Shown: positions 48,878-63,421, counted from the first letter of the stretch. The stretch is DNA of 64,000 nt from Candidatus Latescibacterota bacterium (GCA_964291625.2 OZ220089.1:2400001-2464000); one strand, 5' to 3'. Notes: generated by a model not told the origin, from the letters alone. Numbers and translations: made by a program.

Positions 48878-49750
48878 TCAGAACACCTCCGTCTCGTCGC
48901 AGATCGCCATCAGCGCGTGGTAGCGCTGGGGGTGCCGCAACTTGCCCAGGGCGCGCTCCTTCAGTTGCCGGACGCGCTCGCGGGTCAGGTTCATCAGGCC
49001 GCCGATCTGCTCCAGGGTCATGGCCTCGGCGCCCTCGAGCCCGAAGTAGAGGCGGATGATCTTGAACTCCCGCTCGTCCAGGGCCTCCAGCACGTTCTCC
49101 AGCTGGCGCCGCGCCGTCTCCTCCATCACGTCGCCGTCGGGCGGTGCCTGGTCGTCGTCGCGCAGCACGTTCATCAGGCTGCGCTCGTCGTCCTCCTCGA
49201 AGCTCTCGTCGAGGGAGCGAACCGAGCGGGCGCTCAGGATCGTGTCCTGCACCTCCTGCGGAGAGACCTGCAGCTCGGCGGCGATCTCCTCGATCTCGGG
49301 CTCGGTGTCACGGCCCTGGCCGAGCTTGTGCGACGCCCGCGAGATGTCCTTGAGCAGGCTCAGCTTGTTCAGCGGCAGGCGCACGGTGCGGGCGTGGTCG
49401 GCGATCGTCTGCAGGATCGACTGCTTGATCCACCAGACGGCGTAGGAGATGAACTTGAAGCCCTTGGTGCCGTCGAACCGCTCGGCGGCCGTCATCAGGC
49501 CCACGTTCCCGGCGCTGATCAGGTCGGCCAGCGACAGGCCGCGGTTCTGGTAGTTCTTGGCCACGTCGATGACGAAGCGCAGGTTGGCCTGCACGAGCTC
49601 GTCGCGGGCCCCCATGTCGCCGGCGTGAATGCGAGCCGACAGCGCCACCTCCTCCTCCCGCGACAGGGGGGTGGAATCGGCGATGTCGTCGAAGTAGAGC
49701 CTGAGAGTGCTCTCTTCCTTGTTGAGGACCTCATGTAGAGGGTAAGCCAT
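48878..49750 (-). CDS. RNA polymerase sigma70-family factor, short RpoD/SigA type (no region 1.1)
   Basis: 'LVQANLRFVIDVAKNY', 'DLISAGNVGL', 'GFKFISYAVWWIKQSI', 'RTVRLP', region 4 'TLEQIG..MNLTRERVRQLKERAL'. Confidence 0.92.
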   Translation of the reverse strand: MAYPLHEVLNKEESTLRLYFDDIADSTPLSREEEVALSARIHAGDMGARDELVQANLRFVIDVAKNYQNRGLSLADLISAGNVGLMTAAERFDGTKGFKFISYAVWWIKQSILQTIADHARTVRLPLNKLSLLKDISRASHKLGQGRDTEPEIEEIAAELQVSPQEVQDTILSARSVRSLDESFEEDDERSLMNVLRDDDQAPPDGDVMEETARRQLENVLEALDEREFKIIRLYFGLEGAEAMTLEQIGGLMNLTRERVRQLKERALGKLRHPQRYHALMAICDETEVF

Positions 49751-49800
49751 CACAACTCCTTGAATCGGTTAGGGATATCTCTTCCGGTTCGGCGCCGCGC

Positions 49801-50340
49801 TCAGGACTCGATCCATCGCGCCCGGTCCACCAGCAGGAACTGCATCTCTTCGGCCGTCTCCGCGTGCTCCATGGCCGAGACGAAGTCCGCGTCTCCGAAG
49901 ACGCGGGCCAGCGCCCCCAGCAGCCTCAGGTAGAGGCCGGGGGCATCGAACGGCACGGCGATCAGGCAGATCATGCCCACCTCCTGGCGATCGTCGCCCG
50001 AGGGGAACTCGATCGGCGCCCTCGTGCGGGCCATGGCCAGGCCCAGGCGGCGCACCATGCGGCCCCGGGCGTGGGGCAGCGCGATGCGGCCCTCCGCCAG
50101 GACCGTGCTGCTCAGGTTCTCGCGCTCCAGGACCGCCTGCATGAAGGCGAGGCTGTCCTCGACCACCTCCTGCCCGCGGAGACGGTCGGCCAGCTCCTTG
50201 ATGGCAGCGATCTTGCTGTCCGCGGCCAGGTCCGGGACCATCAGGGCGGGGTGAGAGACGATGTCCGCCAACTCACCGGCAGCGGCGGGCGCATATTCTG
50301 CACCCACCCCCCGATCACTGGTCAAAGTGCCGTACATCAA
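49801..50340 (-). CDS. PTS IIA-like protein (EIIA Fru/Ntr family)
   Basis: 'AVLERENLSST', phospho-His 'IALPHAR', 'LIAVP...YLRLLGALAR'. Start uncertain. Confidence 0.85.
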   Translation of the reverse strand: MMYGTLTSDRGVGAEYAPAAAGELADIVSHPALMVPDLAADSKIAAIKELADRLRGQEVVEDSLAFMQAVLERENLSSTVLAEGRIALPHARGRMVRRLGLAMARTRAPIEFPSGDDRQEVGMICLIAVPFDAPGLYLRLLGALARVFGDADFVSAMEHAETAEEMQFLLVDRARWIES

Positions 50341-50526
50341 GCCGCAGGTCGTTGTTTTTCAACATCTTGCAGGACAGCTCGAGGGTGCCGGACGAGGGCT
50401 GCAATTCTTGCGCTCCGGGAAACGGGTGGAACTGCGGAACGTGTCGCATCGATGATCCCGACCCCGGTAGGGGTCCGGCGTCGCGGGCTGCCTTGGGGCG
50501 TCTGGTCTGCCGCCCGCAGTGTCATA

Positions 50527-50542
50527 TGCAAAGTCGGTGCCA
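50527..50542 (-). promoter_or_regulatory. sigma54 (-24/-12) promoter for the PTS-IIA/sigma operon
   Basis: Minus strand TGGCACCGACTTTGCA, near-consensus. Confidence 0.8.
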
Positions 50543-50660
50543 TAGACACCGAGAGCACATGTATCTGACGGTTATTACTGGAGTTATGGAATGAAGGCCG
50601 CGGCCCTGGCGGCCCTGGCCGGCGAGCGTTCCAGCGCTGGCGTGCAATTCCTGCAGCAGA

Positions 50661-52049
<1,389 letters not shown>

Positions 52050-53941: not shown

Positions 53942-53983
53942 GTTGGGTACCACCATCCTCGTACGAGTTGCCGCGGAATCCCC

Positions 53984-55111
53984 ATGATCCTCGAACAGCA
54001 GATCGAGCGCGCCGGCCTGGCCGGCGTCCACGCCAAGGTCCTCGGCGGCGAGCGCCTGTCGGCCGACGACGGGCTGCTGCTCTACCAGTGCCCGGACCTG
54101 CCCGTCCTCGGGTACCTCGCCAACCTGGTGCGCGAGGCGAGGCACGGGGACACCACCTACTACGTGCGCAACCAGCACATCAACTACACCAACATCTGCA
54201 ACAAGCTGTGCAAGTTCTGCTCCTTCTACGTCAAGCCGAAGGACGACCGGGGTTACGTCCTCGATCCGGAGCAGGTGGCGCGGCGCATCCACGACTACGG
54301 CGATGCCCCGATCACCGAGATCCACATGGTGGGAGGCGTCAACCCCAAGCTGCCCTACCAGTACTACCTCGACCTGATGCGAGCGATGAAGGCGGCCCGG
54401 CCCGAGGCACACCTCAAGGCGTTCACCATGATCGAGATGGCCCAGATCCAGAGGGTGGCGCGCAAGCCGATGGAGGAGGTCTTCGCCGATCTCCGCGAGG
54501 CCGGGCTGGAGTCGCTGCCCGGCGGCGGCGCCGAGGTGTTCTCCGACCGGGTCCAGGAAGACCTGTTCTGGACCAAGGCCGACTCCGAGGACTGGCTGGA
54601 GATCGCCGCCGCCGCCCACCGCACCGGCCTGCCCTCCAACGCCACCATGCTCTACGGCCACGTGGAGAACACGGAGGAGAAGGTCTACCACCTGGCGAGA
54701 CTGCGGGAGGTCCAGGACGAGACGGGCGGCTTCCTGTGCTACATCCCCCTCTCCTTCCATCCCGAGCGTACCGAGATCGACCACCTGCCCGGCCCCACCG
54801 GGCAGCTCGACCTGCGCGAGATCGCCGTGGGCCGGCTCATGCTCGACAACTTCCCCCACATCAAGACCTTCTGGATCATGAACACCATCGAGATCTCCCA
54901 GGTCGCCCTGTGGTACGGCGCCAACGATCTCGACGGCACGGTGATGGACTACGAGATCACCCGCGAGAGCTTCGAGGCGACCCGCCAGCGGCTGACGCAG
55001 CGGGAGCTGCTGGGCCGGATCGTGGAGGCGGGGAGGAAGCCGGTCGAGCGCGACAGCCTCTACAACGTCGTGGCCGGCACCGAGGAGCTGCTGGGCGAGG
55101 CCGCGGGATGA
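53984..55111 (+). CDS. mqnE: Aminofutalosine synthase (radical SAM)
   Basis: 'NYTNICNKLCKFCSF', 'EIHMVGG', 'HLKAFT', 'PGGGAE', 'NATMLYGH', 'DNFPHIK'. Confidence 0.9.
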   Translation: MILEQQIERAGLAGVHAKVLGGERLSADDGLLLYQCPDLPVLGYLANLVREARHGDTTYYVRNQHINYTNICNKLCKFCSFYVKPKDDRGYVLDPEQVARRIHDYGDAPITEIHMVGGVNPKLPYQYYLDLMRAMKAARPEAHLKAFTMIEMAQIQRVARKPMEEVFADLREAGLESLPGGGAEVFSDRVQEDLFWTKADSEDWLEIAAAAHRTGLPSNATMLYGHVENTEEKVYHLARLREVQDETGGFLCYIPLSFHPERTEIDHLPGPTGQLDLREIAVGRLMLDNFPHIKTFWIMNTIEISQVALWYGANDLDGTVMDYEITRESFEATRQRLTQRELLGRIVEAGRKPVERDSLYNVVAGTEELLGEAAG

Positions 55112-56265
55112 ACGGGTCCCGGGGGATCGCCGACATCGGCGAGAAGGTCGGCCGGGAACAGCGGCTGACGTTGGACGACGCCCGCCGGCTCCTGGCCCAT
55201 CCCAACGTGGCGGAGTTGGGCCTGCTGGCCCACGCGGTGCGGATGCGGAAGCATCCCGACCCGGTGGTCACCTACAACGTGGGCCGCAACATCAACTACA
55301 CCAACGTCTGCTGGGTGCGGTGCGACTTCTGCGCCTTCTACCGGCCCCCGGGGTCCGACGAGGGCTACACCCTCCCCCACGAGGAGATCTTCGCGAAGAT
55401 CGACGAGCTCGTGGACTTCGGCGGCGACGAGCCCAAGTCGAACGAGATCCTCATGCAGGGAGGGCTCAACCCCAAGCTGCGCCTCGACTACTACGAGGAC
55501 CTGCTGAGCCAGATCCGCGACCGCTACCCCTCGGTGCAGCTCCACTGCCTGTCGGCCACCGAGATCATCTACATCGCCCACCTGTCGAAGCTCTCCCTGG
55601 AGGAGACGATCCGCCGGCTGCGCGACGCCGGCCTCGACTCGATCCCCGGCGCCGGCGCCGAGATCCTGGTGGACGAGGTGCGGGACGTCATCGGTTTCCG
55701 CAAGGACCGCACCGACGAGTGGCTCGACGTGCACCGCGTTGCCCACGGACTCGGCATGCGCACCACGGCGACGATGATGTACGGCCACGTGGAGAGTGTC
55801 GAGGACCGCCTCGAGCACCTCCGCCTGCTGCGCGACCTGCAGGACGAGACCGGCGGTTTCACCGCCTTCATCGCCTGGAACTTCCAGCCCGACGAGACCG
55901 ACCTCGGCGCCGACGCCTCCCGCTGGAACGGGGTCAAGGCCAGCGGCTACGACCACCTGCGGACGGTCGCGGTGAGCCGCCTCTTCCTCGACAACTTCGA
56001 CCACTTCCAGGCCTCGTGGGTCACCCAGGGGCCGCGGATCGCCCAGGTCAGCCTGCGCTGCGGGATCGACGATTTCGGTAGCACCATGCTCGAGGAGAAC
56101 GTGGTCAGCGCCGCCGGCACGAGCCACACCAACGAGATGGACCTGGCGAACATGGAACGGCTGATCCGCGACGCCGGGTTCGATCCTGTGCGGCGCAACA
56201 CCCGCTACGAAAAGGTGGCCGCCCGGCCCCGGTTGCAGGCCTTGGGGCACGCCGCCGCTTCATGA
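55108..56265 (+). CDS. mqnC: Cyclic dehypoxanthinyl futalosine synthase (radical SAM)
   Basis: 'RNINYTNVCWVRCDFCAFYR', 'ILMQGG', 'PGAGAEIL', 'QASWVTQG', 'GSTMLEENVV'. Confidence 0.92.
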   Translation: MNGSRGIADIGEKVGREQRLTLDDARRLLAHPNVAELGLLAHAVRMRKHPDPVVTYNVGRNINYTNVCWVRCDFCAFYRPPGSDEGYTLPHEEIFAKIDELVDFGGDEPKSNEILMQGGLNPKLRLDYYEDLLSQIRDRYPSVQLHCLSATEIIYIAHLSKLSLEETIRRLRDAGLDSIPGAGAEILVDEVRDVIGFRKDRTDEWLDVHRVAHGLGMRTTATMMYGHVESVEDRLEHLRLLRDLQDETGGFTAFIAWNFQPDETDLGADASRWNGVKASGYDHLRTVAVSRLFLDNFDHFQASWVTQGPRIAQVSLRCGIDDFGSTMLEENVVSAAGTSHTNEMDLANMERLIRDAGFDPVRRNTRYEKVAARPRLQALGHAAAS

Positions 56266-57071
56266 ACGCCCCCCGCCGCGTCCGCCTCGGCGCGGTGAGC
56301 TACCTCAACTCCCGGCCTCTCACCTACGGTCTCGACCAGGACGACCTCTTCGAAGTGCACTACGGAGTGCCCGCGGCCTGCGCCGAGGACCTGGCCGCCC
56401 GCCGCATCGACGTGGGCATGATCCCCATCGTGGAGTACGGACGCCGGGCCGCCGGCCTCCGGATCGTCCCCGGCCTGGCCATCGGCTCGCAGGGCGAGGT
56501 GCTCACCGTGCGCCTGTTCTGCCGGGGGCGGCTCGACCGTGTGCGCCGGGTCGCCGCCGACACCAGCTCCCGGACTTCGGTGGTGCTGCTTCAGCTCCTG
56601 CTTCGCGAGCGCTACGGCATCGACCCCGAGATCGCCGCGGCCCCCCCGGACCTCGATACCATGCTGCACCGCGCCGACGCCGCCCTGTTGATCGGGGACC
56701 CCGTGCTGCCCCTGGTCGGAACCGGCCGCGACACCGGCCTCTCCAGCCTGGACCTGGGCCGGGAGTGGCACGAGCTTACCGGCCGGCCCGGCGTCTTCGC
56801 CTTCTGGGCGGGACCGGAGGGGGCGGCCGGCGCCGAGCACGTGGCGCGCCTGCAGCGGGCCCACCGCGAAGGAGTTGCGCACATCGCCGAGATCGCCGCC
56901 GGCTTCCAGCGCGAGCACGCCGGCTCCGCCGTGCTCTACGAAGGCTATCTCCGCGATCGCATCTGCTACGACCTGGGGCCGGCCCAGATCGCCGGGCTCA
57001 CCGAGTTCTACCGCCTCGCCCACCGGCACGGTCTGATCGAGTCCGTCCCCGAGCTGCGCTTCTTCCCATGA
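56262..57071 (+). CDS. mqnA: Chorismate dehydratase
   Basis: 'VSYLNSRPL', 'SRTSV', 'ALLIGD', 'DLGREW...VFAFW'. Confidence 0.9.
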
Positions 57072-57955
57072 ACGCCCTCTCGCCGGTCCTCCTCTACGGC
57101 CGGCTGATCAGGTTCTCCCACAGCATCTTCGCCCTGCCCTTCGCCCTCAGCGGCGCCGCCCTGGCCGCCGCCGTCACCGGCTTTCACCCCCGGCAGCTGC
57201 TGTGGATCGTGGTCGCCATGGTGGCGGCGCGCTCGGCGGCGATGGGCTTCAACCGCATCGTCGACCGCCGCATCGACGCGGACAACCCGCGCACGGCGCA
57301 GCGGGAGCTGGTCACCGGCGCCCTGTCGGCGGGAGCCGCCGCCGCCTTCGTCGTCCTCTCCTCGGCGCTGTTCGTGGTGGCCGCGTGGCAGCTGAACCAG
57401 CTCTGCCTGGCCCTGTCGCCGGTGGCCCTCGCCGTGATCCTCGGCTACTCCTACACCAAGCGCTTCACCTGGACCTCCCACCTGTTTCTCGGGGCCAGCC
57501 TCGGCCTGGCGCCGCTGGGCGCCTGGATCGCGGTGACCGGCGGCTTCGCCCTGCCCCCGGTCCTCCTCGGCCTGGCGGTCCTGGCCTGGGTGGCCGGGTT
57601 CGACGTGCTCTACGCCTGCCAGGACCACGACTTCGACATCGGCGCCGGCCTGCACTCGATCCCCGCGCGCTTCGGCCTGGCCGGGGCCCTGCGCCTGGCG
57701 CGGCTCTTCCACCTGCTGGCGGTGCTGCTCATGGCCTGGGTCGGCGCGGCCGCCGGGCTGCACCTGGTCTACTTCGCCGGCGTCGCCGCCATCGCCGCCA
57801 TGCTCGCCTGGGAGCACCGCCTGGTGAAGGCCGACGACCTCACGAAGGTGAACACCGCCTTCATGACCATGAACAGCCTCGTCAGCGTCGCCTACTTCGC
57901 CTTCACCCTGGCCGACCTGTTGATCCTCGGCGACGCGCCCCGGCTGCTGCCATGA
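57068..57955 (+). CDS. ubiA: UbiA-like polyprenyltransferase (MqnP)
   Basis: 'HSIFALPFA', '[15 protein letters not shown]', 'YSYTKRF', 'FDVLYACQD'. Confidence 0.9.
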
Positions 57956-59943
57956 CCGCGGCCCTGGACCTGGACGGCCTCCTCGGGGGCGGGGGCGAGG
58001 AGCTCTACGAGGTGCGCACCCGCGCACCGGGCCCTCCCGGGCGCCTGAACCTCGACGAGGAGACGGTGATCGGGTCGCCGAGCGGCGACATCTTCGCCTA
58101 CAGCCAGAACGCCGGCATGGGCTGGAACCCCGCCCATCTCGGGCGCAAGGAGTTCCTCATCGTCAGCACCCTCGGCGGCATCCGCGCCCCCGACGGCACC
58201 CCCGTGGCCCTCGGCTACCACACCGGCCACTGGGAGGTGGGCCTGCTGATGGAGGAGGCCGCCCGGGAGATCACACGCCTCGGCGGCATCCCCTACGCCG
58301 CCTACTGCTCCGACCCGTGCGACGGCCGCTCCCAGGGCACCACGGGGATGTTCGACAGCCTGCCGTACCGCAACGACGCCGCCATCGTCATCCGGCGGCT
58401 GATCCGCTCCCTGCCCCGGCGCCGCGGGGTGATCGGCGTCGGCACCTGCGACAAGGGGCTGCCGGCGGTCCTGATCGCCCTGGCCGGGGCCCGCGGCCTG
58501 CCGGTGGTCGTCGTCCCCGGGGGGGTGACCCTGCCCCCGGAGCACGGCGAGGACGCCGGCAAGATCCAGTCCGTGGGCTCGCGCCTGGCCCGCGGGGAGA
58601 TCACCATCGACGAGGTCAACGACCTCGGCTGCCGCGCCTGCGCCACCCCCGGGGGCGGCTGCCAGTTTCTCGGCACAGCGGCCACCTCCCAGGTCGTGGC
58701 CGAGGCCCTGGGCCTCACCCTGCCCCATGCGGCCCTGGCCCCCTCGGGCGAGCCGGTCTGGCGCGACATGGCGCTGCGCTCCGGCCGGGCCATCGTCGGC
58801 CTCGAGGCCCTCGGCCTCACCTCGGCGGACGTGCTGACCCAGGCCGCCGTCGAGAACGCCATGGTCGTCCACGCCGCCGTCGGGGGCTCCACCAACCTGC
58901 TCCTGCACGTGCCCGCCATCGCCCACGCCGCCGGACTGCGGCGGCCGACCGTCGAGGACTGGGACCGCGTCAACCGGCAGGTCCCGAGGCTGGTCGACGT
59001 GCTGCCCAACGGGCCGCGGCACCACCCGACGGTGCGGCTCTTCCTGGCCGGCGGCGTGCCGGAGGTCATGCTGCACCTGCGGGGCATGGGGCTTCTCGAC
59101 CTCGACGCGTTGACCGCCACCGGCCGCAGCCTCGGCGACAACCTCGACTGGTGGGAGGACAGCGAGCGCCGTCGGCGGTTTCGCCACCGCCTGCAGGCGC
59201 TGGACGGCGTCGATCCGGCGGACGTGATCCACGACCCGGACGGCGCCCGGGCCAAGGGCATGACCAGCACCGTCTGCTTCCCCACGGGCAACCTGGCCCC
59301 CGAGGGCTCGGTCGTGAAGAGCACGGCCATCGAACCGTCCCTGCTGGACGAGGACGGCGTCTACCGCCTGCGGGGGCCGGCCAGGATGTTCACCACCGAG
59401 CGTGACGCCATGGCCGCGATCAAGGAGGGCCGCATCGCCGCGGGCGAGGTCATGGTGCTGCTCTCCTGCGGCCCCATGGGCACCGGCATGGAGGAGATCG
59501 CCCAGGTGACGATCGCGCTCAAGTACTGGGAGTCCGGCGGCCAGGTGGCCCTGCTCACCGACGCCCGGTTCTCCGGGTTCTCCAGCGGCCCCTGCATCGG
59601 CCACCTGGGCCCCGAGGCCCTCGCCGGCGGACCGGTGGGGCGGCTGATCGAAGGCGACGTGGTGGAGGTCCGGATCGACACGCGCAACCTGGGGGGCCGC
59701 GTCGATCTGGTTGGGCACGGAGAGGAGATCTTCGGTGCGGAAGAGGGAGCACGGGTGCTGGCCGGCCGCGATCCCCGGCCCGACCTGGCGCCCGAGGAGG
59801 AGCTGCCCGACGACACCCGCCTGTGGGCGGCCCTGCAGCAGGCCGGCGGCGGCACCTGGGGCGGCTGCGTCTACGACCCCGACGAGATCGTGAAGCTCCT
59901 CGACGCCGGCCGCCGGGCGCTGAACGGGGACGGTTCCCCGTGA
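57952..59943 (+). CDS. YjhG/YagF family D-xylonate dehydratase (IlvD/Edd superfamily)
   Basis: 'SQNAGMGW', '[10 protein letters not shown]', '[10 protein letters not shown]', 'TCDKGLPA', '[10 protein letters not shown]', 'GGSTN', 'TDARFSG'. Confidence 0.9.
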
Positions 59944-60551
59944 GGCAGCCGAAGTCCTTCGTCGTCGGGGTCACGGGGGCCAGCGGCGCCCTCTACGGAG
60001 CGCGCGCTCTGCGGGCGCTGCTGGCCTCCGGGCACCACGTGCACCTGGTGATGTCGCGGTACGGCCGCTACGTGATGCACGAGGAGCTCGGCTGGGAGCC
60101 GGACCGCGAGCCGGTCTTCGACTTCCTGGCGCGCACCACGGGGGAAGAGGTCCGCGAGGGGACTCTCGAGGAACACGGTGTCAACGACATGACCCGCGAG
60201 ATCTCCTCCGGGTCGGCGCCGATGGACGGCATGGTCGTCGTGCCGTGCTCGGTGAAGACCCTTTCCGGCATCGCCCGCGGCGCCTCGTCGAACCTCATCG
60301 AGCGCTCCGCCGACGTCTCCCTCAAGGAGAGGCGGCCGCTCGTGCTGGTGGTGCGCGAGACCCCCCTGAACCTGGTCCAGCTGCGCAACCTGGTAGCCGT
60401 CGCCGAGGCCGGAGCCTCGGTGGTCCCGGCCATGCCGGCCTTCTACCAGAAGCCGCGGACCTTCGAGGATCTGGGGGACTTCGTGGCCGGCCGCATCCTC
60501 GCCCTCCTGGGGCTGGAGCACGACCTGTTCCCGCGCTGGGAGGGGGGATAG
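59940..60551 (+). CDS. ubiX: UbiX family flavin prenyltransferase
   Basis: 'VGVTGASGA', 'SSGS', 'PCSVKTL', '[15 protein letters not shown]', 'PAFY'. Confidence 0.92.
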
Positions 60552-60673
60552 AACAGGTGCGCCGGACGGTCTCGGGGAGCGGACCGCCCGGCGCGGGACC
60601 CGGGGCCGGGGGACGGCCGCCGGGATCGTGAGCGGGCGGCGGGGAGGACGCAACGCCCGGTCACGAGGTGTTG
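60552..60673 (-). ncRNA. Candidate sigma54-dependent sRNA with three C-rich hairpin loops
   Basis: Three adjacent stems (60559-60594, 60599-60624, 60626-60666) directly downstream of a sigma54 motif, in an intergenic region between convergent genes. Confidence 0.5.
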
Positions 60674-60683
60674 GCCGTCTTCT

Positions 60684-60699
60684 GGCAAGGCTCGTGCCA
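60684..60699 (-). promoter_or_regulatory. sigma54 (-24/-12) promoter with no downstream ORF
   Basis: Minus strand TGGCACGAGCCTTGCC. Confidence 0.65.
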
Positions 60700-60815
60700 G
60701 AGCATGATGTGGGGTCGGGGGCTGCCTGGTTCCACCAGATATGGTGGTCCCCATCCCGCCCTCCGCGCACGCGTCCGGGAAAAGGCTGCCGCCGGAAGGA
60801 AGGGGTTTCCCGTTT

Positions 60816-61925
60816 CTAGCGAGGGGGGCGAACCGGGGTGGGGGGCACAGGCCGGAGACGCTGGTACCACTCGGTGAGGACCTTTTCGGCGGGCTTGCCG
60901 AGGGGCGTGAATCCGCCCTGCTCCTCACCACCACGCAGGTCGGAGTGCCACTTCCACCAGTACATGCCGTGGAACCATGGGCGCGGCCAGAACGCCTCCA
61001 GCACGGCTTGGTAGCACAGGGCCTGCTCCTCCATCGACAGGTCCGGCTCCGGCCGGCGCGTCCACTCCCAGGGCCGCAGGCTGGCGCCGCGCACCGACTT
61101 GTAGCCGATCTCCGTGAGCAGCACCGGGCGCCCGGTGAGCTGGTGGAGCGCCTCGATCTCGTCCGCGATCCTCACGGCGCCGGCGCGCAGCTGCTCGAGG
61201 GTGGGGTCCGGCTGCTCGAGGCCGGGATCCGGTGGCTCCGCGAGGGGGAAGAAGGCGTTGATGCCGATGTAGTCGAGAGCATCCCAGAACTCGACCCGGT
61301 CGTACTCCTCCCACCAGTTCGCCGCGTACGTCAGCGGCCCCGGGTAGGCCTCGCGCACTCGTGCGATCAGCCGCCGCCAGTCCTCCGGCCGCTCCCTGGC
61401 GACGCGGGTGAGCTCGACGCCGACGCAGAAGATCTCCACCCCCTCCTCCGCCGCGATGCGGGCGTAGTGGAGGACGAAGCTCTCGTAGTGGCTCCACCAC
61501 TGCTGCCAGGCCTCCTCCGTGGCCATGCCGATGGTGCCACGCCAGTGATCGCTGCTCTGCCGGCGCACCCAGACGTGGGGCTTGAGCATGACCTTGAAGC
61601 CGAGCCGGCGGGCCTCGCGGATGCCGTGGCGCAGGTGGTCGTCGGGCGGGTCTCTCCCGAAGCGCAGGTCCGCGTCGTCCACCGTGCGCTGGTAGGCGAA
61701 GGGATTGAGGGCGGCCCACTCGACGTTGACCCGGCGGAGATGCTCCAGCGCGGCCGTCGAGGTTCCGGACATCAGGTTGTCGTCGCTGCCGTAGCCATGG
61801 GTGAAGGTCATGCCCTTCTGAAAGACGGGCCGGTGCGCCGAGGGCTGGGCCCGGAGGGGCAGGGCCCAAACCAGGCAGACCCAGGCCAGGAAGAGCGCGA
61901 ACGCGGGACGGGCGGCGGCGCTCAC
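60816..61925 (-). CDS. Glycoside hydrolase family 113-like TIM barrel, secreted
   Basis: Signal peptide, 'KVMLKPHVW', 'CVGVEL', 'TYAANW', 'IGINAFFPL', 'LLTEIGY'. GTG overlaps the upstream stop. Confidence 0.8.
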   Translation of the reverse strand: MSAAARPAFALFLAWVCLVWALPLRAQPSAHRPVFQKGMTFTHGYGSDDNLMSGTSTAALEHLRRVNVEWAALNPFAYQRTVDDADLRFGRDPPDDHLRHGIREARRLGFKVMLKPHVWVRRQSSDHWRGTIGMATEEAWQQWWSHYESFVLHYARIAAEEGVEIFCVGVELTRVARERPEDWRRLIARVREAYPGPLTYAANWWEEYDRVEFWDALDYIGINAFFPLAEPPDPGLEQPDPTLEQLRAGAVRIADEIEALHQLTGRPVLLTEIGYKSVRGASLRPWEWTRRPEPDLSMEEQALCYQAVLEAFWPRPWFHGMYWWKWHSDLRGGEEQGGFTPLGKPAEKVLTEWYQRLRPVPPTPVRPPR

Positions 61926-63421
61926 CGAAACAGCCCCTGGAGACGGTCGGTACGCGAGACTTTGGGCAGGTACCCCCGCAAGCGGCCCTCGCCGACCGGC
62001 ACGGCCCGGCAGACGGGGTGGCTGCCGTAGAAGCAGATGACCTCTCCCGCCGGCGGCGAGGGCAGGGCCACCTCCTCCCCGCGGAAGAGCCCCGCCACCT
62101 GCGGCCAGGAGAGGTCCAGGCGCCGCTCCGGCACGAGGTGCCCCCAGAGAGCCACGGCCTGCTGCGACAGATGCAGGGCCCCCTTGTGCAGACCGGCCAC
62201 GCGCATCCCGGTACGCACGAACCACGGGAATTCCCCCTGGAGCCGGGCGGCCCCCGCGGGCCTCAGGTGGAGGTGCCGCCGGCCGGCGACCAGCTCCTGG
62301 CCGGCGGGGACCTCCGGCGCGAATCCCCAGCGCTCGACGATCCTGTCCGCCATGCCGGCGGGATCGGGGTCAGGGGGAGGCCCGGCCAGCCGTCGACCCG
62401 CGTCGCCCTCGACCGGCTCCCACTCGGTGGCCCCCCGCTTGCCCACGGCCGCGACGAAGGCCCCCTCGGTAGCGTGCTCGTGGGGCCACACGCGGACGCA
62501 CCCTCCGAAGGCGGGGGGATAGCGGGCGGCGGCATCCGCCGCCAGGCCGGATGCCGCCACCGCGGCTGCCGGCTCGATGTGGACGAGCTCCCCGTACCTC
62601 TTCACCAGCCCCAGGAGGACGTCCTCGTTCTCCTCCGTCGACAACGAACAGGTCGAGTAGACGAGACGGCCCCCCGGCCGCAGCATGTGGAATGCGGCCC
62701 TCAGGAGGCCGACCTGCTGCACGCTCTTGCGGCGGGCGTCCTCGGGCGACCACCAGGCGAGCATGTGCCGGTCCTTGCACAAGATGCCGTCGCCGGAGCA
62801 GGGAGCGTCCAGCAGGACGCGGTCGAAGACGTTGTGGAACCAGCGCGCCATCATCGACCCCGGGGCCCCGGTGATCAGAGTGTTGTGGGCTCCGCAACGC
62901 TCGAGGTGGCCCACGAGCGCCGGCCGGCGCCGGGCGCCGGGCTCGTTGGCGACCAGGAGCCCGCTGTTGCCGAGGGCCGCGGCGATCTGCGTCGCCTTGC
63001 CGCCGGGGGCCGCGGCCATGTCGAGGACGAGCTGGCCCGGGCGGGGATCGAGGACGACGACCGCGAGGGTGGTGGCCTTGGCCTGGACGTACAAGCCTCC
63101 GAGGCGGTACTCCAGGCTGTGGCCGACGGCGGCGGACATGTCCGCCGGCAGGGTGAAGGCGTCGGGGGACCAGGGCACTCCTTCGGCCTTCTCCACCAGC
63201 GATCCACGCAGGCCCTCCGCCATCGGCAGCAGGGAGTTGAGCCGTACGCACGTGGAGGGCTCGGCCACCATCGCGGCTCGGAAGGCCGATGACCGCCCCG
63301 GGTCGGGCAGGAGTCGCTGCAGATGGGCCAGCAGCGCCTCCTGACGTTCCTCCTCCGGGCGCTCCAGGCCCCGCCGGCCCGAGCCTTCTTTGCACCTGCC
63401 CTGTGTTGTCGCGTTATTCAT
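61922..63421 (-). CDS. RsmB/RsmF (NOL1/NOP2/Sun) RNA m5C methyltransferase
   Basis: 'LDMAAAPGGKAT', 'VLLDAPCSG', 'VYSTCS...ENE', 'RVWPH'. Confidence 0.9.
   Translation of the reverse strand: MNNATTQGRCKEGSGRRGLERPEEERQEALLAHLQRLLPDPGRSSAFRAAMVAEPSTCVRLNSLLPMAEGLRGSLVEKAEGVPWSPDAFTLPADMSAAVGHSLEYRLGGLYVQAKATTLAVVVLDPRPGQLVLDMAAAPGGKATQIAAALGNSGLLVANEPGARRRPALVGHLERCGAHNTLITGAPGSMMARWFHNVFDRVLLDAPCSGDGILCKDRHMLAWWSPEDARRKSVQQVGLLRAAFHMLRPGGRLVYSTCSLSTEENEDVLLGLVKRYGELVHIEPAAAVAASGLAADAAARYPPAFGGCVRVWPHEHATEGAFVAAVGKRGATEWEPVEGDAGRRLAGPPPDPDPAGMADRIVERWGFAPEVPAGQELVAGRRHLHLRPAGAARLQGEFPWFVRTGMRVAGLHKGALHLSQQAVALWGHLVPERRLDLSWPQVAGLFRGEEVALPSPPAGEVICFYGSHPVCRAVPVGEGRLRGYLPKVSRTDRLQGLFR

Follow-up and report, generated by a model that had tools for sequence, protein, structure and literature searches.

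A probable sigma-54-dependent small RNA with C-rich hairpin loops between ubiX and a GH113-like gene of a Candidatus Latescibacterota bacterium

The locus

The window analysed here is a stretch of 64,000 nucleotides (nt) from a Candidatus Latescibacterota bacterium (G000:C1:2400001-2464000, within a 5.9-Mb genome, 69.5% G+C, with an estimated completeness of 95%). In this window a spacer of 264 nt separates two convergent genes, namely ubiX (stop codon at 60549-60551, plus strand) and a gene for a GH113-like glycoside hydrolase (stop codon at 60816-60818, minus strand), and contains on its minus strand a sigma-54 promoter followed by three adjacent hairpins with C-rich loops. Comparisons with related genomes indicate that these features very likely belong to a conserved, hitherto uncatalogued RNA of about 120 nt that is non-coding, depends on sigma-54 and is transcribed from the minus strand. 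The features are as follows:

60684-60700, minus strand: sigma-54 promoter CTGGCACGAGCCTTGCC, with the -24 element TGGCAC at 60699-60694 and the -12 element TTGC at 60688-60685
about 60673, minus strand: predicted transcription start, placed by promoter geometry 12 nt past the -12 GC
60667-60673, minus strand: unpaired 5' tail CAACACC of the predicted fold, continuing into CUCGUGA
60626-60666, minus strand: predicted hairpin 1, apical loop UCCUCCC (60648-60642)
60599-60624, minus strand: predicted hairpin 2, loop UCCCC (60613-60609)
60559-60594, minus strand: predicted hairpin 3, a 13-bp stem with the loop CGCUCCCCGA (60581-60572); belongs to the CUCCYC module described below and is probably a terminator
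60550-60558, minus strand: 3' tail ACCUGUUCU, abutting the ubiX stop codon on the opposite strand, with a predicted 3' end
60732-60747, no strand assigned: CCACCA-N4-TGGTGG, a perfect palindrome located between the promoter and the inverted repeat, candidate binding site for an activator or a bending protein
60776-60782 and 60806-60812, minus strand: inverted repeat CGGGAAA/TTTCCCG, about 100-140 nt upstream of the predicted start, candidate enhancer
59943-60551, plus strand: ubiX, flavin prenyltransferase family (Pfam Flavoprotein, 7.2e-42), the convergent neighbour of the RNA
60816-62225, minus strand: GH113-like glycoside hydrolase gene (Pfam GH113, 1.8e-61), the upstream neighbour on the strand of the RNA

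An earlier note, made from the sequence of the window alone, had pointed to this spacer as the site of a candidate sigma-54-dependent small RNA (sRNA). The promoter, the start, the three hairpins with their loops and the tail all lie where it had placed them, and its description of a convergent setting lacking an open reading frame (ORF) agrees with the gene stops located here and with the indels that lie inside the RNA region of a relative (see below).

The promoter and its upstream sites

The promoter is an exact match to the TGGCAC-N5-TTGC consensus (60699-60685, minus strand), with the characteristic GG at -24 and GC at -12 (60686/60685). This motif is found twice in the window against 0.04 occurrences expected, with none of 100 dinucleotide shuffles reaching two, and its count across the whole genome is 17. 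An alignment of the five genomes of the window's clade that carry the unit showed the -24 and -12 boxes to be invariant in all five, with three to five of the five spacer bases being changed in G006 and G007. The genome contains rpoN (one Sigma54_DBD match, 209 bits) and 23 matches to Sigma54_activat, 19 of which score at least 134 bits and represent strong activator genes. A promoter scan of 59500-62000 recovered no sigma-70 promoter-like site. At the level of sequence comparison, the presence of a conserved sigma-54 promoter on the minus strand is supported.

Upstream of the promoter, the two repeats listed above could potentially function as activator sites. The inverted pair, which the earlier note had put forward as a possible enhancer, is indeed present and is a candidate for that role; both its arms are intact in four clade genomes (G000, G002, G004 and G006) and altered in G007, and the pattern GGGAAA-N(0-30)-TTTCCC occurs just twice in the whole genome. 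The palindrome CCACCA-N4-TGGTGG has its single genomic occurrence here, and is kept in four of the five clade genomes and partly in G007. Neither repeat is found near any of the other 16 sigma-54 motifs of the genome, and as both are essentially unique in it, no activator can be assigned to the RNA promoter. No activator gene adjoins the unit in the window either. The proposal that the RNA is part of a nearby sigma-54 circuit (10 kb away; activator gene at 50661-52049, promoter at 50542) is not supported, given that the palindromes upstream of the RNA lie near no other sigma-54 promoter.

That second sigma-54 unit (48878-52049, minus strand) comprises a gene for an NtrC-type activator (50661-52049; receiver, Sigma54_activat and HTH_8 domains), downstream of which lie the motif TGGCACCGACTTTGC at 50542-50528, a gene for a phosphotransferase system (PTS) EIIA-2 protein (PtsN-like, 49801-50340) and one for a sigma-70-family factor (48878-49753). 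Elsewhere in the genome, two perfect sigma-54 motifs at G000:C1:3708256 (minus strand) and 3708434 (plus strand) face apart with about 180 nt between them, and probably constitute a divergent promoter pair with one common enhancer region.

Structure and conservation of the RNA

The predicted minus-strand RNA (60673-60550, i.e. 124 nt) folds as three adjacent hairpins with an energy of -76.7 kcal/mol (z = -5.69), which none of 200 shuffled sequences equalled. Directly past hairpin 3 lies ACCUGUUCUAU. Clear U tracts follow the homologous last hairpin in relatives from the genus g16 and the leader RNA (see below) in those from the genera g22, g4 and g13. Three bases at 60630-60632, in the 3' arm of hairpin 1, set the genome of the window apart from the remaining four of the clade as well as from a contig of the RNA-library run X2; owing to them the outer stem has 6 bp here, in place of 4 bp and an internal GA/AG loop.

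For the comparisons, three covariance models were used: R1, representing the clade unit; R2, derived from an alignment of ten leader RNAs; and R3, representing the CUCCYC hairpin module. BLAST and R1 recovered the unit once in each of five genomes (G000, G002, G004, G006 and G007), which corresponds to five of the ten genomes of the genus and five of the 76 of the family; short BLAST matches in two further genomes (G010 and G018) were not confirmed by R1. A pattern scan of the genome contigs with the three loop motifs gave 76 loci, of which R1 matched three (L039, L085 and L090), all from the same clade, and in the equivalent scan of metagenome contigs it matched none of 80 stretches, out of at least 118 reported.

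Across hairpins 2 and 3, 64 to 66 of 66 positions are identical in all pairs of clade genomes without any substitution, the sole difference being a 2-nt deletion in the linker of G007, and hairpin 2 is invariant in all five genomes, as is CCUCCCCG of the hairpin 1 loop. Between the same genomes, identity at fourfold-degenerate sites of ubiX and the GH113-like gene is 0.76-0.93, and that of the spacer upstream of the promoter 0.66-0.93. This comparison supports purifying selection on hairpins 2 and 3, and the conservation of promoter and loops among relatives on which the earlier note had staked its proposal is thus seen throughout the clade. Since the RNA region of G007 has indels of 1 and 2 nt, no ORF is conserved across it, and the small protein found in more distant relatives was not detected in any of the five genomes. 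A non-coding RNA is therefore the supported reading of the product in the window, as judged from comparative data.

The RNA appears to be undescribed, as had been claimed. A scan of 59500-62000 against Rfam with E up to 10 returned five chance-level matches, none of which falls on the RNA, and a scan of ten related loci returned only sub-threshold matches to ar7 (32.2 bits, threshold 60) and BjrC68 (29.8 and 22.5 bits, threshold 39). In searches of the literature on sigma-54-dependent sRNAs in Gemmatimonadetes, Latescibacteria or sponge symbionts, and on sigma-54-dependent C-rich sRNAs, no account of it came up. A dispersed repeat resembling repetitive extragenic palindromes (REP), which the earlier note had named as an outcome that would undo its proposal, was considered and rejected: the genome holds a single full copy, with all other BLAST matches at 38 bits or less; CTCCCC is no commoner in hairpin loops (4.3%) than control hexamers (4.0-5.1%); and R3 matches nothing else in the genome.

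Relationship to a family-wide locus

As comparison of the loci indicates, and as the earlier note overlooked, the unit in the window is a version lacking ORFs of a locus found across the family, which elsewhere has a larger leader RNA and in certain genera also a pair of genes for small proteins. In three distant congeners (G009, G008 and G005) the sigma-54 promoter of the same spacer precedes a structured leader, about 140 nt long and with loops rich in C and U, which is followed by two small ORFs (ORF1 and ORF2) and then by two 3' hairpins with the loops CCC(N)CUCCCCGGG. Ten such leaders from seven genera could be aligned; they share a long helix that encloses the invariant loop CUCCUCGC(G/A)CAGA, and 12 of 22 pairs show compensatory changes. 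R2 detected the leader in 38 of the 76 family genomes, covering 16 of 18 genera, with a single match in 36 of them and two matches in G041 and G087; in a phylum-wide sample it matched 35 of 63 genomes of the family as against none of 87 from 13 other families.

Thirty of the 38 R2 loci were examined for promoter, ubiX and spacing, and 12 loci were inspected by eye. All 30 have a -24/-12 motif upstream of the leader (26 exact, four with one mismatch), at a distance of 27-36 nt, or of 96-144 nt where extra RNA elements intervene. A convergent ubiX lies behind the unit in 28 of them and a GH113-like gene upstream in 11. The end of the leader is separated from ubiX by -4 to 54 nt in nine loci and by 118-163 nt in four more, and as such distances of at most 163 nt leave no room for the ORFs, these 13 of the 30 loci represent small RNAs without ORFs. 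By eye, several ORF-less forms (g22, g4, g21 and g13) terminate in a clear U tract. Given that ORF-less forms are widespread among the examined loci, the sigma-54-driven RNA is the conserved entity of the locus and the small ORFs are an addition in a subset. The unit has been lost altogether in four genomes (G067, G069, G071 and G019).

The product of ORF2 is an arginine-rich protein of 51-68 residues with the motif RWY..QL..LP..S+++L..QL+R..R.G.LPS+R.W., relatives of which occur in 11 of the 76 family genomes (seven of 18 genera) and in none of the window's clade; a profile search recovered it in 12 of 168 phylum genomes, with one weak match outside the family. ORF1, also under the sigma-54 promoter, encodes about 57-71 residues with one hydrophobic helix (ORF1/ORF2 are held, for example, by L224 1501-1653, L225 1295-1662, L227 1279-1668 and L229 1226-1689). 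Neither small protein belongs to a Pfam, NCBIfam or Atlas family, and DUF1127 failed to match any of nine ORF2 members at E up to 10. In several ORF-bearing species the minimum-energy folds, when inspected by eye, pair a 5' CCUC with the Shine-Dalgarno region of ORF1, which suggests, at the level of these models, a cis version of anti-Shine-Dalgarno chemistry.

Certain loci show further variation. In the genus g13 (L274, about 1380-1590; L277, about 900-1110) two tandem leader cores, which look like a duplicated RNA module, lie under one sigma-54 promoter about 140 nt upstream and are followed by a U tract before ubiX. In L261 (G041, g7) the promoter lies 111 nt before the leader, and behind the leader come an ORF1-like gene, a single CUCCUC hairpin and a convergent gene other than ubiX; this is one of the two loci without a ubiX match, the other being cut by the end of its contig.

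The unit in the window occupies the position typical of the leader locus, with the GH113-like gene, a sigma-54 promoter about 27 nt before the RNA and a convergent ubiX behind it. The window, G023 and G091 share one gene order: RsmF-like, GH113-like, the unit, then ubiX (convergent), ILVD/EDD-like and UbiA. Inspected by eye, the predicted transcripts of relatives from g1, g12, g15 and g6 have a similar 5' start, AACAC(N)CCUC. Global alignment with G005 matched 17 of 21 positions in the promoter, 14 of 18 and 8 of 10 in hairpin 2 and 25 of 31 in hairpin 3, and paired hairpins 2 and 3 of the window with the two 3' hairpins of G005, hairpin 2 with the first of these. The alignments with G005 and G009 are convincing for the promoter and hairpins 2 and 3 and ambiguous for hairpin 1.

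Hairpin 3 aligns without gaps with 14 hairpins from the genera g1, g16 and g6, with nine of 12 pairs changed on both sides in a compensatory manner; 96.8% of the cells of this alignment can pair, compared to 66% in shuffles (none of 500 reaching the observed value) and 35-47% with slid partners. One G-C pair, one G.U pair and the loop core never vary. These hairpins define the CUCCYC module, characterized by a stem of 11-13 bp with the invariant G-C and G.U pairs, closing C-G pairs and the loop N-CUCCYC, all of which are present in hairpin 3. R3 located this module in 19 of the 76 genomes (four genera), always at the GH113/ubiX locus and in one to three copies. In G000, hairpin 3 is the sole R3 match at 48.8 bits, a score that is not independent because this hairpin was among the seeds of the model, and hairpin 2 did not reach E = 0.01. 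A variant of the module with a different stem reaches up to five copies in the genus g14, where arrays of at least five hairpins with the stem GUGGCC(U/C) and the loop (G/U)CUCCCC follow ORF2 (L253 813-1123, minus strand; L254 2006-2380, an array that contains a masked run of N). The form in the window thus combines the promoter with a single short C-loop hairpin and with two hairpins of the module type. The simplest derivation would start from an ancestor like G005 that lost its coding part along with most of its leader, the order of these events being conjectural.

As regards the wider setting of the locus, ubiX is the last gene of a menaquinone (futalosine-type) run on the plus strand (53968-60551), which includes genes for a radical SAM protein with a CofH/MqnC C-terminal region, VitK2_biosynth, a UbiA prenyltransferase and an ILVD/EDD-like dehydratase; the order ubiX, ILVD/EDD, UbiA recurs in G023 and G091. 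Parts of the window are contained in 22 of 24 listed sequencing runs, most of which are sponge metagenomes.

Comparison with known small RNAs

A dedicated sigma-54 promoter, upstream activator sites and a small regulatory RNA with repeated hairpins are combined in Qrr1-5, GlmY, CrcZ and NrsZ, which work through Hfq, RapZ or Crc as partners. None of these RNAs was matched in the Rfam scan of 59500-62000, and an Hfq gene was not found in the genome, estimated to be 95% complete. The closest analogue is instead the cuckoo/CcsR group and the closest sigma-54 example is Pxr; the RNA in the window belongs to neither.

The cuckoo/CcsR RNAs of Alphaproteobacteria (RSs0680a-d, NfeR and the Rfam ar14 group) possess two to four adjacent hairpins with CCUCCUCCC loops and variable stems (PMC4615179). 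They are transcribed from an RpoHI/HII promoter together with the small arginine-rich RNA-binding protein CcaF1, in whose 3' or 5' untranslated region (UTR) they lie, with the terminator last (PMC4615179, PMC8034643), and their C-rich loops have been discussed as signatures of sRNAs that pair with ribosome-binding sites (PMC4615179). The likeness to the present locus extends to the modular, adjacent hairpins with C-rich, anti-Shine-Dalgarno-like loops and variable stems, the number of modules varying between species, as well as to the use of an alternative sigma factor and to a position in the 3' or 5' UTR of the gene encoding a small protein rich in arginine, with a probable terminator last. 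It is further seen in the relatives studied here, which have zero to five hairpins, C-rich loops in both the leader and the 3' part, and ORF2 in the 11 genomes noted above. However, the two systems are from different phyla and depend on different sigma factors, namely sigma-54 here and RpoHI/HII there. The loops here are CUCCYC/UCCUCCC of 5-10 nt (in the window UCCUCCC, UCCCC and CGCUCCCCGA) rather than CCUCCUCCC, there is no Rfam match, with even ar7 in the relatives reaching only 32 against 60 bits, ORF2 is not a DUF1127 protein, in contrast to the CIN1 subgroup with its adjacent DUF1127 (CcaF) gene, and the form in the window is ORF-less in a genome in which no Hfq gene was found.

Pxr from Myxococcus and its relatives is an RNA of about 108 nt with a predicted sigma-54 promoter, three stem-loops and a conserved intergenic site (PMC5568312, PMC5684412). 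The sigma-54 promoter and three stem-loops are shared with the RNA in the window, a resemblance only and one that was compared by description. Pxr differs in its neighbours, which are nla19, an activator gene, and a gene for an NADH dehydrogenase, as opposed to a GH113-like gene and ubiX, and in belonging to another lineage. In Firmicutes, RNAIII and RsaE/RoxS use several unpaired UCCC loop motifs to pair with ribosome-binding sites independently of Hfq (PMC4615179). They resemble the present RNA in having several C-rich (UCCC) hairpin-loop motifs, in keeping with the apparent lack of Hfq here, but show no sequence or Rfam relation to it, and differ in promoter type, size and lineage.

Potential function and alternative explanations

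The above observations suggest a full explanation whose chances we consider to be evenly balanced: the unit would be a sigma-54-dependent sRNA, the short form of the family locus, that acts in trans through anti-Shine-Dalgarno pairing. An activator bound at the candidate sites (60732-60747 and 60776-60812) would turn on the promoter, and the RNA made from about 60673 to 60550 would fold such that its three hairpin loops expose CCUCC/UCCCC motifs, with hairpin 3 probably also terminating the transcript. Most likely the loops would then base-pair with target mRNAs at their G-rich ribosome-binding regions and reduce their translation in an Hfq-free manner, a mode likened to those of cuckoo/CcsR, RsaE/RoxS and RNAIII. 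Among the mechanisms considered, this pairing of the loops with ribosome-binding sites, which is argued from analogy, ranks first; taken on its own, it is advanced tentatively and with somewhat more doubt than confidence. Comparison supports the promoter, the strand, the non-coding nature, the selection on hairpins 2 and 3 and the hairpin module, while the ends of the transcript, its action in trans and its targets are predicted.

Several observations weigh against this explanation. A genome-wide search for targets by exact complementarity (11-mers, extended) gave two 17-nt sites as the longest, which by our estimate is about the level expected by chance in a 70% G+C genome, and none at a start codon. 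Thus, of the translational regulator of about 120 nt proposed in the earlier note, the conserved sigma-54 promoter and the uncatalogued non-coding RNA stand, and the translational regulation is left without a convincing target. The invariant stems and the conserved G.U pair fit recognition by a protein at least equally well as pairing with an mRNA. Hairpin 1 and the 5' tail are identical to G007 at 39 of 50 positions, which is close to neutral (0.79 at fourfold sites). Within the clade none of 39 pairs shows a compensatory change, because the sequences are too alike, so that the covariation which the earlier note had suggested looking for is seen in the hairpin 3 module across genera and not in the clade. 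R2, when run against the five clade loci with its filters off, gave at best 8.2 bits (E = 4) and 7.7 bits (E = 5.4), in either case at another place, and owing to this failure to match the RNA in the window is not filed in the leader family. A simple terminator scan of 59500-62000 found no canonical U tract after hairpin 3, and the 3' end is for this reason a predicted one. The transcription data are equivocal. Contigs from three RNA-library runs and one DNA run, which carry no strand, ends or level, were compared with the region; two metatranscriptome runs have contigs across the RNA, from which neither strand nor ends can be read, and the 3' end of ubiX (60472-60555) is uncovered in the RNA runs. 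One RNA-run contig (60568-60732) extends 59 nt past the predicted start and stops where the DNA-run contig stops, and on account of this overrun and shared end, it might stem from DNA carry-over or from read-through of the GH113-like gene.

The invariance of the loop core and of a G.U pair at fixed depth over three genera, while other pairs covary, would also be accounted for if an RNA-binding protein read the 7-nt NCUCCYC loop on its G.U stem and the RNA served as a decoy or sponge that titrates or delivers this protein. The number of hairpins, which ranges from one to five per locus, is reminiscent of sponge RNAs, a small protein rich in arginine is encoded in the unit of some relatives, as is the RNA-binding small protein CcaF1 in the analogous cuckoo locus (PMC8034643), and the lack of a convincing mRNA target in the complementarity search points the same way. 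However, there is no candidate protein: ORF2, which has no Pfam, NCBIfam or DUF1127 match, is absent from the five clade genomes and from those g16 loci that retain three hairpins, and cannot therefore be the general partner. A sponge of this kind is regarded as unlikely. Alternatively, the unit could act in cis, with the hairpins ending and insulating the convergent transcripts (that of ubiX on the plus strand and that of the GH113-like gene or the sigma-54 unit on the minus strand) and transcription from the sigma-54 promoter modulating ubiX and the menaquinone operon by antisense overlap or collision of polymerases. The convergent ubiX that lies behind the unit in 28 of the 30 related loci, often only -4 to 54 nt away, is in line with such a role, as are the start of hairpin 3 only 8 nt past the ubiX stop and the good fold of the plus strand (z = -3.79). 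Yet plain terminators need neither an invariant loop nor a dedicated sigma-54 promoter nor one to five repeated modules, and antisense pairing imposes no constraint on sequence, whereas hairpins 2 and 3 are invariant. Moreover, the four genomes that have lost the unit (G067, G069, G071 and G019) have ubiX with a close convergent gene, showing that ubiX does not need it, and we consider a role mainly in cis quite unlikely.

The full set of promoter, 140-nt leader, both ORFs and a pair of 3' hairpins that G005, G008 and G009 have in the same position, together with the alignment of the promoter and hairpins 2 and 3 with those of G005 and the near-neutral drift of the hairpin 1 stems, raises the question of whether the unit is simply the remnant of a sigma-54-driven operon for two small proteins, which lost its coding part and left a promoter and terminator hairpins devoid of any role. 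This is very unlikely in light of the lack of substitutions in the 64 aligned bases of hairpins 2 and 3, against a fourfold-site identity to G007 of 0.76-0.79 (a chance of about 0.79^64, near 3e-7), the retention of the -24 and -12 boxes next to a changed spacer, and the commonness of ORF-less forms in other genera. Finally, each loop contains GGA when read on the plus strand, and the hairpins lie directly behind the ubiX stop; they could on this reading belong to the 3' UTR of ubiX and sequester CsrA, the earlier note having raised a CsrA-sponge-like plus strand. As no CsrA gene (PF02599) was found in the genome, estimated at 95% completeness, with control genomes being positive, as the conserved promoter faces the opposite way in all 35 loci, and as the U tracts of relatives follow the hairpins on the strand of the RNA, this reading is extremely improbable.

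Beyond the sRNA with anti-Shine-Dalgarno loops favoured above, the locus as a whole invites a broader conjecture, which we offer as speculation and consider on balance rather doubtful: it might represent a modular system of sigma-54-controlled RNAs with C-rich hairpins, independent in origin of the alphaproteobacterial cuckoo/CcsR, that switches in evolution between the 5' and 3' UTRs of an operon for two small proteins and a free sRNA, with the strictly conserved NCUCCYC loop on its G.U stem either docking an RNA-binding factor or mimicking the anti-Shine-Dalgarno tail of the 16S rRNA so as to capture ribosome-binding sites. If so, the clade of the window may be a natural experiment in which only the RNA modules have been retained.

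Implications

The organism is uncultured and no cultured host is at hand, which sets a practical limit to further work on this RNA. Nevertheless, regulatory RNAs are almost unknown in uncultured, sponge-associated lineages, and here comparison alone defines a promoter, a covarying structured RNA and a lineage series that starts with an mRNA carrying RNA modules and ends with a small RNA by itself. The covariance models R1-R3 could be used for annotating the locus in related genomes. The lineage series provides a clean case for how small RNAs arise from UTRs, and also bears on whether the combination of anti-Shine-Dalgarno hairpin arrays and small basic proteins that cuckoo/CcsR exemplifies is a design that recurs. 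For the biology of this group, the finding would mean that sigma-54 gains a dedicated RNA output.

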